From a virus (taxonomy: Duplodnaviria > Caudoviricetes), in the IMG/VR virus record IMGVR_UViG_3300010052_000007, positions 1 to 30,886 of that record: a stretch of 30,886 bases of DNA; one strand, written 5' to 3'. This document shows, one piece after another, positions 14,334-19,625 of the stretch. A model generated the notes under the pieces. It did not search any database, had not been told where the DNA came from, and was given only the letters and a program-made list of their open reading frames with translations. Numbering within the stretch: the stretch's first letter is position 1; each line of letters opens with the position of its first letter. The position numbers and the translations under genes are program-made.

Positions 14334-14957
14334 TCAGTGGGTCTGGGCGGCGAGCCGGTTGGCGATCGCCTCACCCAGCGACCCCGCCCGGGCGGGCGGG
14401 TTCGGTCGGGGGCCGCCGGGGAACGGCGGGGTGCCGGTGGCGGCGGGGGCTGCCTTGAACACGTCGTCGGTGTCCAGGGCGGTCGTGATGGCCTTGCTGA
14501 GTGCCTCGGTGTCGGTGGGGTCGATGTCCTTGATCGAGGCGAGGAAGGTGCTGGAGTCGAGGAGCCGGGCGGCGTTGGCCTCGAGTGCGGGGGCGGCCTT
14601 GAACACGGCGAGCTGGAGGTTGGCGGCCCGAGCGTTGGCCTTCTCGGTCGCGATCTCTGCGGTGAGCGCCGTGGGGTCAGGGGGCGTGTCGTCCTTCTTG
14701 ACGCCGAGGGCGACCGCGAGGGCGTCCATCTGCTGCTGATGGGCGGTCTGCATCTCGCTGACCTGGGTCTCCAGCGCCTGGCGCTTGTCGCGTTCCTTGG
14801 CGAGGTCGGCGAGGATCGCGTCCTTGCCGCCCTTCGAGGGGTCGGGCTCGGCCGGCGGGTTGGCCGGGTCTGCCGGAGGCGCCGGGCTCGGCGCAGGAGC
14901 CGGGGCGGCCGGAGCCGGGGTGGGAGTCGGGTCGGGGTTCGGGTTGGGGTCGCCCAT
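14334..14957 (-). CDS. Capsid scaffolding protein, 207 aa
   Basis: Pro-rich N-terminus, GGKDAILADLAKERDKRQALE coiled coil, LLDSSTFL motif; directly upstream of the capsid gene. Confidence 0.88.
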   Translation of the reverse strand: MGDPNPNPDPTPTPAPAAPAPAPSPAPPADPANPPAEPDPSKGGKDAILADLAKERDKRQALETQVSEMQTAHQQQMDALAVALGVKKDDTPPDPTALTAEIATEKANARAANLQLAVFKAAPALEANAARLLDSSTFLASIKDIDPTDTEALSKAITTALDTDDVFKAAPAATGTPPFPGGPRPNPPARAGSLGEAIANRLAAQTH

Positions 14958-14979: not shown

Positions 14980-15031
14980 GGGCGCTCCCTCGCGGAGCAG
15001 CCCTGTGGGCCCGTCCGCGTCTCGCGGCGGG
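14980..15031 (-). promoter_or_regulatory. Tandem GNRA-N pentaloop hairpins in the scaffold leader
   Basis: CCCG-CCGC[GAGAC]GCGG-A-CGGG (15010-15031) and GGGC-U-GCUCC[GCGAG]GGAGC-GCCC (14980-15003). Confidence 0.55.
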
Positions 15032-15089
15032 AGTCGGTGAGGGTCGAGGCCGTCGGTAGGACCCAGTGGCCTGGATGGCGCTGTCGGCG

Positions 15090-15095
15090 TACACT
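15090..15095 (+). promoter_or_regulatory. Putative -10 element TACACT, convergent with the MuF-nuclease gene
   Basis: TANNNT hexamer about 7 nt upstream of the hairpin at 15103; weak -35-like TGGCCT at 15067-15072 (17-nt spacer). Confidence 0.5.
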
Positions 15096-15101
15096 CGAAG
15101 G

Positions 15102-15149
15102 TGAAGCGGGGCGGCCTCGGTGTTAACTGGGGATGCGCCCCGCTTTGTT
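15102..15149 (+). ncRNA. Candidate small hairpin RNA (possible RNA antitoxin)
   Basis: Outer stem 15103-15113/15136-15146, inner stem 15115-15120/15127-15132 with two G-U pairs possible only on the plus strand, loop UGUUAA, 3' end UUUGUU; upstream -10 box. Confidence 0.45.
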
Positions 15150-16521
15150 AGTTCAGCGGGATCCTGATCAGCCGGCCGTGGCTCATGACCCACAGGCGCT
15201 CGATCTTTCGACCCGCGGTGTGGTTGTAGTCGCGCAGGGCCTCGAGAGCCTCCGGCGCTACGTCGCGGTCTCCGACGTCAACCACGACGTTCGCGACTGT
15301 CGGACGGCGCTTGTTCTTGGCTGTGGCCTTCGCGATCTGTCGAGCGATGTGCTTGGCATCGACCGGGGTCGTCGCGCGCAGGCCCTTGTGTTCGACCAGG
15401 AGGTCGACCGGGAGCGATGGGTCGAACTCGGCACTGGTGTGCCACACGAAGTCGTTGGCCGGCAGGGTGCCGATCTCGTCGGCGCCATTGGACCCGGTCG
15501 GGATCCACGAGATGCGCTGGCCGAGTCCGGTGACCATCCGCTCGGCGAACCGGACCTCGTCGTCCTCGAGCGACTCGCCAGAGGCGTTGAACCGCTCACC
15601 TTCCAGCGCAGCTTGTCGGGCGTTCCAGTACCGCACGTAGTCCGGGTCGCCCGGCTCGGGCTCCGGCGCGGGCGTAGGTGGCTGCGGTGGCCGTGGCGGC
15701 TGCGGTGGCCCGTCTCCTGAGGAACTGTCGACGCTCGGCGCGGGGGTGCGTCGGCGGCTGGACAGGTCGACGTAGCCGTTGTCGGACAGCAGGTCGACGA
15801 GGGCCTCGCGGTCCTCGCCGGCCGCGCGGAAGATGCCCTCGGGGGTCATCTTGCCGTTGCGGGCCAGAACGTGGCCGGACTCCTTGAGCCCAGCGGCCTT
15901 CGCGCGGACGTTGACAACCTGGTTGAAGTCGACGTCGTGCTCGAGGATCGCCCGCCGGTCGGCCTTCGACAGGCCGGTGACGAGCCCGCGGCGAGCGAGG
16001 TCGACGGGATCCTGCACGAGGTCGCGGTTGGCGAGCGTCGTGGGGATCATGACGCAGTCGCAGCCGGGGTGGCGCAGGAACCCGGTGGAGTAGCGGTAGA
16101 CCCGGCCAGCCAGGACCACGCAGCGTGAGCACGAGGGCGGGTCGAGGTAGCGGACGTGTCCGATGTCCTCGCGGACCGCCACGGCGACCTCTTCGGCTGC
16201 CCGGCCGGCGTCTTGGACGAGGGACTCGACGAGCCGGTCGAAGCCGAGGTCGCCGGCCTCGTCGAGCATCGCCTCGAGCATCTGGACCGAGGTGGTGAAC
16301 GCGGCCGAGTTCAGCAGCGCGTCCGCGGCGGCGTCGAGCGACTGCTCATCGAGCATCGCGGCCACAGCGCGGCTGGCGAGCTGGGCCTGTGCGACCTGGT
16401 ACTTCGCGACGACCGTCCCGACGGCGATGGTGCCGCGGGATCGGACCCGGCGGGCCTCCCGGGCGGCCGAGCGGGCGGTCAGCGCGGAGCGGCGGTAGTG
16501 CTCAGTTGCGGTCCGCAGCAT
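15148..16521 (-). CDS. MuF-like minor head protein with C-terminal CdiA-like PD-(D/E)xK nuclease (toxin) domain, 457 aa
   Basis: Between portal and scaffold; RYLDPPSCSRCVVLAGR...FLRHPGCDC MuF-type motif; Pro-rich linker; CTD with E..FAERM...ANDFVW...VEHKGL...IARQIAKA...VVVDV...IERLWVM pattern. Confidence 0.8.
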   Translation of the reverse strand: MLRTATEHYRRSALTARSAAREARRVRSRGTIAVGTVVAKYQVAQAQLASRAVAAMLDEQSLDAAADALLNSAAFTTSVQMLEAMLDEAGDLGFDRLVESLVQDAGRAAEEVAVAVREDIGHVRYLDPPSCSRCVVLAGRVYRYSTGFLRHPGCDCVMIPTTLANRDLVQDPVDLARRGLVTGLSKADRRAILEHDVDFNQVVNVRAKAAGLKESGHVLARNGKMTPEGIFRAAGEDREALVDLLSDNGYVDLSSRRRTPAPSVDSSSGDGPPQPPRPPQPPTPAPEPEPGDPDYVRYWNARQAALEGERFNASGESLEDDEVRFAERMVTGLGQRISWIPTGSNGADEIGTLPANDFVWHTSAEFDPSLPVDLLVEHKGLRATTPVDAKHIARQIAKATAKNKRRPTVANVVVDVGDRDVAPEALEALRDYNHTAGRKIERLWVMSHGRLIRIPLN

Positions 16522-17890
16522 CGCGGCGCACCTGGTCCGCGACGGCGGCGGTGATCGGGTCGAGGAGCTGCCGCTGGCGCTTCTCGGCCCAGTCCTTCAC
16601 GTCGTCCCCGTCGGCGTTGAAGTACCGCTCCCAGGCGACCTCTTCGGGCATCCCGGCGCTGATGGCGACCTTGGCGGCGTTGGCCTGCTCGGTGTCGGTG
16701 ACGAACTCCGGGTTGCGCCACTCGGTGCTCATCCGGTTCATGTTGGGCACCGACTTTCCGGCGGCCTTGAGCACGAGCCGGTTGACGTCCTCCCACGAGT
16801 CGTCCTCTTCGGCCATCCGGTCGCGAGTGCGCGACACCTCGGAGGACTGGGCGAGCTTGAGACCGTCGGCGGCGACGTTGACGAGCTTGCCCATGATCGA
16901 GTCCGCCGAAGTCGGCACCAGCACGGCGCAGTCGATGACGTCGTCACGGACGGCGTCGAGCATCTGCTTGATGTCCTCGGCCTGGAGCTGGCCGTACTTG
17001 CCCTCGGGGTTCTCGTTGACGAACATCCGGTTCACGGCCTTGACGAAGCCCTCGACGGGCTCCTTGGTGACCGGGTCGCGGGGGATCTTGAGGCCGGTGG
17101 CCCACATGGCCTTGAACGCGCCCTGGTCCTGCATCGCCATCCGGTCCAGCAGCGACTTGTTGAGCCGCTTCTGCGCAGGCAGCGCCCGGTGCCACTCCGG
17201 CACGGGAGCGTCGAGCATCCGGGACCGGTTGGGGAACGGCACCAGTGCGACCTCGCCCAGCGAGTTCGTGCCCGTCCCCTTCTCCTGCAGCTCCCAGGAC
17301 GGCTTCATCGACAGCGCCGAGCGGGCTTGAGTGGCGTAGACCCGGGTCTTGGCGGCGTAGGTGAACACTCCTTCGCTGCCGAGGTCGAGGAACGCCATGA
17401 TGAGCGGCCCGCCGACGGCGGTCTCGTCGAGCCACACCTTCAGACCGGCGGCTCGGGCGCGGCTGCTCCCGGGCGCGTACTCGACGATGCACTGCTCGGG
17501 GTGCTCCGGCGTCATCTTCGGAACGCCGGAGTTGGGGTCGACCATCACGTATGCCTCCGAGAGCGAGTGCTTCTCGTGACGCACGAGCCGGGAGCCGCGG
17601 TCGAAGTTGTTGGCCTGCCAGACGTCCCAGATGTCGTCATTCGGCTTGCCGTCGACCTTGAACCCGGCGATCCGCATCCGCGCCAGCGGGGCATCCGAGA
17701 CGACGCCGAGCATGTTGAGCCCGACCGTTTCCAGGAGGCGCTGGAACAGCTCCTCGGCGTCCGCGTAGCCCTGCGGCGCGGGGTGGGCGCCGGTGTACCA
17801 GGCGTTCCACGTCTTGATGGTCGGCTGACGCTCGCGCAGCTTCTTGTACAGCCGGTCGAGCCACCAGTCGGGAGTCCCGGTATCAGCCAT
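16502..17890 (-). CDS. Portal protein (SPP1 gp6-like), 462 aa
   Basis: WYTGAHP, IWDVWQANNFD, VPFPNR and EWRNPE motifs; follows terminase; GGGAGG RBS. Confidence 0.93.
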   Translation of the reverse strand: MADTGTPDWWLDRLYKKLRERQPTIKTWNAWYTGAHPAPQGYADAEELFQRLLETVGLNMLGVVSDAPLARMRIAGFKVDGKPNDDIWDVWQANNFDRGSRLVRHEKHSLSEAYVMVDPNSGVPKMTPEHPEQCIVEYAPGSSRARAAGLKVWLDETAVGGPLIMAFLDLGSEGVFTYAAKTRVYATQARSALSMKPSWELQEKGTGTNSLGEVALVPFPNRSRMLDAPVPEWHRALPAQKRLNKSLLDRMAMQDQGAFKAMWATGLKIPRDPVTKEPVEGFVKAVNRMFVNENPEGKYGQLQAEDIKQMLDAVRDDVIDCAVLVPTSADSIMGKLVNVAADGLKLAQSSEVSRTRDRMAEEDDSWEDVNRLVLKAAGKSVPNMNRMSTEWRNPEFVTDTEQANAAKVAISAGMPEEVAWERYFNADGDDVKDWAEKRQRQLLDPITAAVADQVRRDAADRN

Positions 17891-17914: not shown

Positions 17915-18535
17915 TCAGTACGAGATGGAGGCGTAGTCGGGCTCGACGATCCAGCCCGCGGCACGCTGGTCGGCTGCGGCCTCGTGGCAGATCACGGTCG
18001 TCACGGCGGCGTCGATCTTCTGGTGGTGGGCCGGCTTGCCGAGGGTGTAGGTGCGGCCGGTGCGGGCGATGATCTTGCGGGCGTTGCGCATGTGCGCCTC
18101 GGTGATCGGGCAGCCGTCGTGGGTGATCCACTGCAAGTCGGCCTCGAAGCGCCGGATCGCGGGATACATCCGCTGAGCCGAGGTCGTCGGGAATGTCACG
18201 AACCGCGGCGAGCCGTCCGCGTGCGGCCACTCGGTGGCCCACTCCTCGATCTCGGTCTCATAGGAGGTCTCGTCGTGGAACCCGGGGTCGCAGTAGGCGC
18301 GCAGCAGGTCGTAGGTGTCGACGATCTCGGCCCAGGCCGCATGGATCTGGCCGCGGGGGATCTTGTTGTCCCAGTCGCGGGGGTTCCAGATCGTCGGGAG
18401 CCGGTCTGGCCCGTAGCGGGGGGTGAAGATGTAGCCCTCGCGGGTCTCGAGCTTGATCGCGGTCCAGTCGTCGTTCTCCGAGCCGTCGAACCCGCCACAC
18501 ACGGCGGTGCCCTCAGGCGGCGGCGGCAACCACAT
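17915..18535 (-). CDS. Terminase large subunit, nuclease domain, 206 aa
   Basis: ATG 18535 with GAGG RBS; VCGGFDGSENDDWTAI, YCDP and HMRNAR...KIDAAV RNase-H-like terminase motifs. Confidence 0.9.
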   Translation of the reverse strand: MWLPPPPEGTAVCGGFDGSENDDWTAIKLETREGYIFTPRYGPDRLPTIWNPRDWDNKIPRGQIHAAWAEIVDTYDLLRAYCDPGFHDETSYETEIEEWATEWPHADGSPRFVTFPTTSAQRMYPAIRRFEADLQWITHDGCPITEAHMRNARKIIARTGRTYTLGKPAHHQKIDAAVTTVICHEAAADQRAAGWIVEPDYASISY

Positions 18536-19625
18536 CGGCTCGCCTCGCTGTCCATGCCCCGTCCGGCAGCCACGCGCCGCCGCCGGCACGGATGCGGTTG
18601 CCGAAGAACCGCTCGGCCTGCGCCGGGTCGCGCTGGACCAGGGCGAACGCGAGTCCCTCGATGCTGTCGAGGTTCACGTGGTCGGAGCCCTCGTAGACGT
18701 AGGCGTGGATCTTGCGGCGGTTCGCCTTCGTCGAGTACGGCAGCGGCTTGCCGTCCTCGCCCAGCAGGTCCGGGTTGGTGTCGGGGTTGCGGTAGTAGGT
18801 GAACACGTCGGGCAGGTCGGCCTCGTGGGTCAGTTGCGCGAACGACTCCATCGCCGGGTCGTAGCAGTTGGTGGTCTGCTTGCCGCGTCCACCCATGCCC
18901 GCCGCGCCACGCTCCTGGGCGTCGGCGACCTCGATCATCCCGTTCTGCTTGGTGTAGAGCCCCGACTCGTCGTGCAGGTAGTCCGAGATCGGGTTGCCCA
19001 GCCGCGACTTCGCGCTCGAGGACACCATGTCGATTCGATCGGTCTCCGGGTCGGTTCCCTCGGCCGCGATCCGCATGAACTCCCCGCGCGGCAACAGCAG
19101 GTCGGCCAGCGGTGAACCCTGCCGGCGGATCATCGCGTTCAGCGGGCCCCACACGTTGGTCTTGACCTGCTCCTGGCTGTTGGCCGTGAGCTGGATCAGC
19201 GGAGAGGGGTGGCGCACACCCATCGGCTCGCCGACCTCGTACTCGTAGTACCAGCCACACGAGCAGCCGTGGAGATCGCAGCGGTAGACGTCGCCGCGCT
19301 TGGCCCAGCCACCGAACAGCTCCGGGCCGACCGCCGAGACGCATGTCAGGCACGCAGCCCACGGACCCTTGCCCGTCTTCTGTGGCGCCATGACCTGGGT
19401 CAGCCGGTAGACGAACGCCTGGTTCATCGGCGGGTCGTCCGGATCGTAGACCGCGTCCTCGCGCACCCGGTAGTGGTTCGCGGTGCACCAGAACTGCCAG
19501 TCGTACTGCCGGAACGGGCGGCCCCGCTTGAAGCCCTGCGGGATCACACAGTGCTGCTCGATCCACTCATCGACCAGATCGCCCAGCGTGGGGAAGTCGA
19601 TCTTCCCAGGGCCCTCCGACAGCAT
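18513..19625 (-). CDS. Terminase large subunit, ATPase domain, 370 aa
   Basis: Walker A APQKTGKG, Walker B YLHDESG, TTN coupling motif, ERFFGNR end. Confidence 0.92.
   Translation of the reverse strand: MLSEGPGKIDFPTLGDLVDEWIEQHCVIPQGFKRGRPFRQYDWQFWCTANHYRVREDAVYDPDDPPMNQAFVYRLTQVMAPQKTGKGPWAACLTCVSAVGPELFGGWAKRGDVYRCDLHGCSCGWYYEYEVGEPMGVRHPSPLIQLTANSQEQVKTNVWGPLNAMIRRQGSPLADLLLPRGEFMRIAAEGTDPETDRIDMVSSSAKSRLGNPISDYLHDESGLYTKQNGMIEVADAQERGAAGMGGRGKQTTNCYDPAMESFAQLTHEADLPDVFTYYRNPDTNPDLLGEDGKPLPYSTKANRRKIHAYVYEGSDHVNLDSIEGLAFALVQRDPAQAERFFGNRIRAGGGAWLPDGAWTARRADVVAAAA

Follow-up and report, generated by a model that had tools for sequence, protein, structure and literature searches.

We focused on a 30,886-nucleotide stretch of viral DNA (IMG/VR record IMGVR_UViG_3300010052_000007, positions 1 to 30,886), referred to here as the window. 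Its head module contains a minor head protein gene with a predicted C-terminal nuclease. The portal gene lies on one side and the scaffold gene on the other. Close relatives of this gene are found within bacterial chromosomes, and its position is that of the head/packaging module of a temperate phage. On the opposite strand, a -10-like hexamer precedes a predicted small hairpin RNA that ends where the nuclease gene ends. The features are listed in Table 1.

Table 1. Features at the nuclease locus of the window. ORF, open reading frame; SD, Shine-Dalgarno sequence.
Feature	Position	Strand	Remark
Minor head protein (MuF-like/VG15) with C-terminal nuclease, 457 aa	15148..16521	minus	stop codon TAA, 15150-15148
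C-terminal PD-(D/E)xK nuclease domain, 164 aa (about residues 294-457)	15151..15642	minus	predicted CdiA-1026b-like tRNase fold
-10-like hexamer TACACT, preceded by GGCG	15090..15095	plus	7 nt ahead of hairpin; predicted start near 15102
Predicted small RNA, 44-nt bulged hairpin	15103..15146	plus	ends at toxin stop codon
Outer stem of hairpin, 11 bp	15103-15113/15136-15146	plus	
Inner stem of hairpin, 6 bp	15115-15120/15127-15132	plus	CCUCGG/CUGGGG, two G-U pairs
Conserved inner module (C-run/G-run stem and A-led 3' bulge)	15114..15135	plus	candidate protein-binding site and tRNA acceptor-stem mimic
Scaffold-like protein	14334..14957	minus	first SD-led ORF beyond toxin stop
Two small sense-strand hairpins before scaffold start	14984..15031	minus	outside toxin-RNA cassette
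Portal	16502-17890		
Terminase large subunit, first ORF	18513-19625	minus	
Terminase large subunit, second ORF	17915-18589	minus	

The original prediction, made from the letters of the window, gave the minor head protein a PD-(D/E)xK-like end of about 165 residues. Structural comparison bears this out. An AlphaFold2 model of the domain (predicted local distance difference test score, pLDDT, 90) was aligned exhaustively to 48,161 solved chains. The top match was the CdiA-1026b toxin of Burkholderia pseudomallei (4G6V; Z 9.8, root-mean-square deviation 3.2, 119 residues aligned, 13% identity). The E479 toxin was second (5J4A; Z 6.0). Both toxins are tRNases with protein immunity, and the 1026b toxin cuts the acceptor stem of tRNA-Ala (PMC9086364). 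A homologue search with the nuclease domain gave 92 representatives at E <= 0.001. Residues E322, D357, E377 and K379 are invariant among its homologues. They form an acidic/lysine set akin to E187/D214/D223/K242 of CdiA-1026b, a likeness at the level of the set. The C-terminal 164 residues had no Pfam match, PDB sequence searches with the domain gave no match, and Foldseek against the PDB gave none at E <= 0.001; 4G6V surfaced only in the exhaustive alignment. Among named Atlas clusters, those nearest to the domain have CdiA_C or CdiA_C_tRNase, and CdiA_C is present in 49% of Atlas neighbour members. We infer tRNase activity from the modelled fold, which is its sole basis.

The predicted positions of TACACT and of a hairpin some 7 nt later, running to the toxin stop, were confirmed. 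The two stems of the hairpin are separated by a 1 x 3 internal loop, with G15114 unpaired and AUG as the bulge, and the loop at the tip is UGUUAA. Folded as plus-strand RNA, positions 15103-15150 reached -32.2 kcal/mol (z -5.25; 0 of 200 shuffles were as good), and the minus strand gave -21.6 kcal/mol (z -4.53). The outer stem pairs on either strand but the inner stem pairs on the plus strand only. Full folding is thus a property of the plus-strand RNA, as had been proposed. The sequence GUUAGUU follows the hairpin, across the toxin stop, and is likely the RNA's own weak terminator. At TACACT, a scan with the promoter consensus gave no complete -35/-10 promoter. Hence, the promoter in the window rests on the conserved -10 element. 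Two contigs cover the element and have no listed change in 15083-15164, though two are too few to weigh.

We next compared the window with related loci from viral, metagenome and genome collections, collapsed to 29 distinct downstream regions. Briefly, L037 duplicates L036, while L176, where a long RNA lies beside a nuclease broken by a stop, did not enter the ORF and -10/helix counts. Linkage was scored as TANNNT with a helix of 7 bp or longer 5-8 nt after it, and the expectation was taken from dinucleotide shuffles. All 29 distinct nuclease loci had this arrangement, against 3.6 expected. The RNA runs to the stop codon or close to it; it is convergent with the nuclease gene in 26 loci and co-directional in three. 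The C-terminal domain is exchangeable. The same nuclease occurs on different N-termini, and the same N-terminus occurs without the nuclease in all 10 other loci (nine of them distinct). The -10 and helix were found in none of these nine nuclease-less relatives, which were identified through the N-terminal domain and have spacers of 41-76 nt holding just the two small sense hairpins. The same two hairpins persist in the spacer of the window. Hence, nuclease, RNA and promoter appear to form one inserted unit.

The RNA is also kept where the nuclease gene is altered. The short form is found after a nuclease gene that stands alone (L025) and after a C-terminal nuclease remnant of 42 residues (L043). 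RNAs are likewise found beside nuclease genes that are frameshifted (L016) or stop-interrupted (L176) in their records. Carriers include the cultured Gordonia phage GMA4 and named culture-collection strains. In genome samples they are scarce (3/401 and 3/401). An RNA-pattern search gave 111 matches. Three had the full architecture, all beside a nuclease and one of them new (L139); the other 108 reflect loose DNA patterns that mostly match by chance. With the long-form pattern, described below, 21 of 35 matches lay beside a nuclease and eight were put down to chance. A further pattern search placed 20 of 24 matches away from any adjoining nuclease, and none passed model R1 below E 0.26. The Rfam covariance-model search gave no match for the RNAs, returning only adjoining tRNAs and one sub-threshold ftsZ-DE match elsewhere in L161. 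We conclude that, by sequence comparison, the RNA and nuclease make up a real conserved cassette, absent from Rfam.

Polymorphic-toxin immunity, including that of contact-dependent inhibition (CDI) and MuF systems, is described as protein-based (PMC5576092, PMC9086364). A small protein encoded across the gap could be the true immunity factor. In 21 of the 29 loci some frame of at least 30 codons lies near the stop, and an ATGA overlap occurs in L004 and L016. However, these frames differ between loci in start, frame and length, and their offsets and sequences are unrelated. The remaining eight loci have none. No small ORF near the stop is conserved across the 29 loci, and SD-led candidates within the hairpin region are limited to L043 and L139. 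In the window itself, the original prediction found no ATG-led or ribosome-binding-site-led ORF in the gap on the coding strand. This stood: the first SD-led ORF past the toxin stop is the scaffold, at +193, and the sole frame that spans the gap, a GTG shadow ORF, has no SD and begins 43 nt within the coding sequence. We regard a protein immunity factor as highly improbable.

Twelve RNAs are of the short form seen in the window. They have in common the outer stem, an inner stem of the C-run/G-run kind and a 3' bulge of 2-4 nt, which in most cases is A-led. In their alignment (A6), 76.5% of cells were paired, compared with 62.6% after shuffling, and there were 31 two-sided changes, compared with 14.4. 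None of 500 shuffles was as high, and the result lay above all slid controls. Together with the linkage at 29 loci, this agrees with the expectation of a conserved -10 and a covarying hairpin in homologues. One inner pair alternates between U-G (seven RNAs) and C-G (five). Hence, the RNA strand is fixed, as this pairing holds only on the predicted strand. Loops across the family read UGUUAA, CGAACAG, UACCA, UAGCC, UCGCC, UUC, UUU and UUUUG. These types follow the nuclease clades in a protein tree that excludes L043 and represents the frameshifted L016 by its C-terminal frame only. The match fits co-evolution but does not prove it, because kin share labels.

These data bear on whether the hairpin is a mere terminator or DNA-level element, serving to halt convergent transcription or to show where a mobile nuclease cassette ends, with no stable RNA made. 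In favour of this, U-rich tails follow most of the hairpins and the outer stem can pair on either strand. However, at all 29 loci the first pair comes 5-8 nt after TANNNT, so that a terminator would have no upstream transcript to act on. Alternation of U-G and C-G implies pairing of RNA on one strand. Furthermore, the conserved bulge and the elaborate long form go beyond the needs of a terminator. We consider this explanation very unlikely.

The long form is about 70 nt. Its base is that of the short form, into which an apical domain with conserved GAAAUAA and CGUCRGAA is inserted. In the protein tree, L027, which has a long RNA, nests with the short-form loci L022 and L024 (support 0.89) and shares their stem sequence. 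Hence, the two forms are tied together. The row for L183, on the wrong strand, was disregarded in the stem comparison. Three long forms with their own -10 are sense-oriented (L160/GMA4, L172 and L174). Six more, each with its own -10, come without a nuclease in the retrieved DNA (L158, L164, L166, L171, L175 and L183). These six lie near viral contig edges and, in three, the adjacent ORF begins MRVVVVGGVAGG and is host-enzyme-like. They are candidate orphan immunity RNAs. No orphan short-form RNA was present among the sequences searched, five whole genomes included. In the long forms L007-L009 and L156-L187, GAAAUAA occupies a 9-nt loop on a 4-bp stem, 2 nt past the inner helix, in a D-arm-like arrangement. 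The single-stranded GAAAUAA and CGUCRGAA motifs may make a loop-loop or T-loop contact.

The sense-oriented RNAs of GMA4, L172 and L174 are directly followed by tRNA-Tyr(GUA), and L027 also has a tRNA-Tyr. Phage tRNA-Tyr(GUA) genes after the cassette map to L018 3061-3142, L172 1259-1338, L174 1089-1168 and L027 2048-2128. Cassettes bearing this tRNA come from four distinct phages in two clades. The tRNA may be a replacement for the target of the toxin. At the sense-oriented loci, tRNA processing could release the 3' end of the RNA.

Convergent antisense pairs are known from prophages, for example txpA/RatA. A cis-antisense RNA of this type I-like kind would pair with the late mRNA past the toxin stop and lead to its cleavage, or would block leaky late transcription in a lysogen. 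The original prediction ranked this below protein binding because the RNA barely overlaps the coding sequence. The overlap is indeed minimal. However, the RNA in the window is wholly complementary to the polycistronic late mRNA, so overlap alone does not exclude antisense action. Complementarity to the toxin mRNA holds for 26 of the 29 loci, the window included, and not for the three sense-oriented loci or the six orphans. The convergent arrangement of these 26 loci, with the RNA ending at or near the stop, also speaks for antisense control. Other observations argue against it. The three sense-oriented copies and the six copies without an adjoining nuclease gene, all of the long form, favour action in trans. 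Antisense pairing needs neither a conserved inner-stem sequence nor clade-specific loops, and both are present. A closed -32 kcal/mol hairpin exposes little single strand. Nor, presumably, could an antisense RNA stop toxin protein brought in by a virion. Antisense control is, in our judgement, unlikely.

The interpretation that we consider probable is that a small RNA, transcribed separately, attaches to the nuclease and blocks it, taking the place of an immunity protein. The support for this part of the original prediction is comparative: linkage, covariation, the lack of a conserved immunity ORF and the sense-oriented and orphan copies. In outline, the nuclease domain of the head protein would cut tRNA. 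The nuclease would be toxic, ride in the phage head and be delivered on infection, as proposed for MuF toxins. The RNA would be made constitutively from its own promoter, also in a lysogen, and end at the U-rich tail. Its bulged inner stem and clade-specific loop would occupy the tRNA-binding face of the nuclease. In this way, the RNA would protect the producing cell and lysogens from both their own and incoming toxin. More tentatively, the RNA may be a decoy of the tRNA acceptor stem, with its ends locked by the outer stem.

Binding need not mean inhibition. The RNA could instead activate the nuclease, guide its specificity, or be its cofactor or packaging partner, and strict linkage and covariation speak for such roles as well. 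DUF3800-I, drum and skipping-rope RNAs, which are protein-linked in either orientation, have no assigned function in PMC5737381. However, because no ORF is conserved, a cofactor would leave a predicted toxin without immunity. The solved relative acts on tRNA as a monomer (PMC9086364). The RNA has no long variable segment that could act as a guide, and orphan copies suit immunity better. A role as cofactor is therefore quite unlikely in our view.

Several points weigh against inhibition by RNA. At the sequence level, assignment of the domain to CdiA_C is weak: the profile gave weak matches in 3 of 39 relatives, the best at E 0.0087 and short of the Pfam cut-off. Identity to 4G6V is low. The test for a -10 and helix was devised after the loci had been seen, and the loci are related, several being near-identical. 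Hence, 29 of 29 signifies tight linkage but is too high as a count of independent cases. Alignment A6 was fitted to a structure model, and the number of pairs having a two-sided change (nine, compared with 8.1 in shuffles) was not above chance. The short-form model did not detect the long forms. Sense orientation is confined to one clade (support 0.93) and to the long form, not the short form of the window; as one clade is involved, it counts as a single event. Finally, we infer expression, toxicity and binding of the RNA-nuclease pair from sequence.

To examine possible mimicry, we scored the inner module against acceptor stems from 45 tRNAs of a host, genome G001, that encodes a 97%-identical nuclease. 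The best scores were for tRNA-Gln(UUG) (102/150) and tRNA-Asn(GUU) (98/150), against a mean of 50. Both tRNAs have U1-A72 and G73, and L043 reads UCCCCUG/CAGGGGAG. The loop of the window RNA equals the host Asn anticodon loop minus C32. Two points count against mimicry. Because C-run/G-run stems are common, with Arg, Leu and Glu scoring 92-94, the acceptor-stem likeness is not discriminating. In addition, the Asn-like loop occurs in only three short-form loci (the window, L016 and L139). The resemblance of the inner stem to host tRNA-Gln/Asn acceptor stems, the closest found, is suggestive of a decoy and is best treated as a lead. Two other forms of mimicry were considered. That all RNAs of the family mimic the anticodon arm of tRNA-Asn was rejected, as loops vary; a mimic of tRNA-Ala G3:U70 was unsupported, Ala being outside the top 12 stems.

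A fuller version of this idea is possible but doubtful. In it, a tRNase toxin family would be neutralised by miniature tRNA decoys; in this phage, the decoy would combine a Gln/Asn-type acceptor stem with the Asn anticodon loop and have its ends sealed by the outer helix. Longer relatives would carry tRNA-like arms. Orphan copies in hosts would provide stand-alone immunity to the virion toxin, and some phages would carry a replacement tRNA-Tyr. If true, a polymorphic-toxin system would here have immunity provided by RNA through substrate mimicry.

The cassette shares features with several known systems. Like MuF polymorphic toxins (Jamet et al. 2017, PMC5576092), it involves a minor head protein, encoded in the packaging/head module, whose C-terminal nuclease can be exchanged, and toxin-free relatives with the same N-terminal domain exist. 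Unlike most MuF toxins, it has no small immunity ORF directly downstream, and the N-terminus is VG15/phrog_1522-like. With CdiA-CT/CdiI of B. pseudomallei 1026b and E479 it shares the predicted PD-(D/E)xK fold and tRNase function. However, CdiA uses type V secretion and is countered by a protein (PMC9086364), whereas the nuclease here is part of a phage head protein.

Type III toxin-antitoxin systems (ToxIN/AbiQ, CptIN and TenpIN; PMC5086642) follow the logic proposed here, in which a small RNA keeps a ribonuclease inactive. Type III antitoxins are tandem pseudoknotted repeats that share an operon with the toxin, lying upstream of it and separated from it by a terminator (PMC5086642). In contrast, the cassette RNA is a single unit, lies downstream, has its own -10 and is mostly convergent; its short form is a simple bulged hairpin with no pseudoknot. 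The nuclease has another fold and is fused to a virion protein. The RNA is best read as type III-like in logic and not as belonging to the type III family. The closest precedent with a single RNA is AbiFr. It is a single cis-encoded non-coding RNA that inhibits its nuclease through bulge nucleotides (PMC12737573). The AbiF toxin, however, is a HEPN protein of an anti-phage system, and no sequence or Rfam similarity was found here. There is also a likeness to DUF3800-I to XI, drum and skipping-rope RNAs (Weinberg et al. 2017, PMC5737381), which are structured, tied to one protein family, found in either orientation and, in several cases, equipped with their own terminator. Their protein partners differ, and the cassette RNAs have no Rfam match.

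Within the open-access literature searched, no RNA immunity was found for MuF or CdiA-type toxins. If the proposed immunity is true, a 44-nt RNA acting on a CdiA-like tRNase would join polymorphic toxins with RNA antitoxins, the latter known from a few families with other folds. About 1 in 10 MuF toxins have no downstream ORF (PMC5576092), and RNA immunity could account for some of these. The cassette RNA would also be a minimal, easily mutated tRNase inhibitor. The role of MuF toxins in the lysis-lysogeny balance would become directly testable, because one can delete the RNA or exchange it between clades. Genome G001 has a second, divergent cassette on another element (L022, G001:C6:495895-496380; loop UACCA). 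No scaffold gene was seen right after the cassette in L022 or L024. The two coexisting pairs in G001 would suit a comparison of cross-protection.

The original prediction described the window gene as a MuF fusion, and this stands in part. The gene lies between portal and scaffold, and in the homologues P0008 and P0009 PF04233 (Phage_Mu_F) is joined to the same C-terminal domain as in the window. Hence, the label MuF-like is retained. However, the Pfam profile search gave no PF04233 match for the window protein. Its N-terminal domain matched VG15 at E 4.8e-5, under the cut-off, and phrog_1522 at E 3.9e-28.

Two further observations concern neighbouring features. The terminase large subunit is encoded by two overlapping ORFs (combined span 17915-19625) that match a separate PHROG family for each half, indicating a split gene or frameshift site. 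The paired hairpins before the scaffold start, in the window and in L029-L038, often have GCGAG or GAGA loops. In relatives, the second of these hairpins covers the ribosome-binding site. The paired hairpins are possibly a translational operator.
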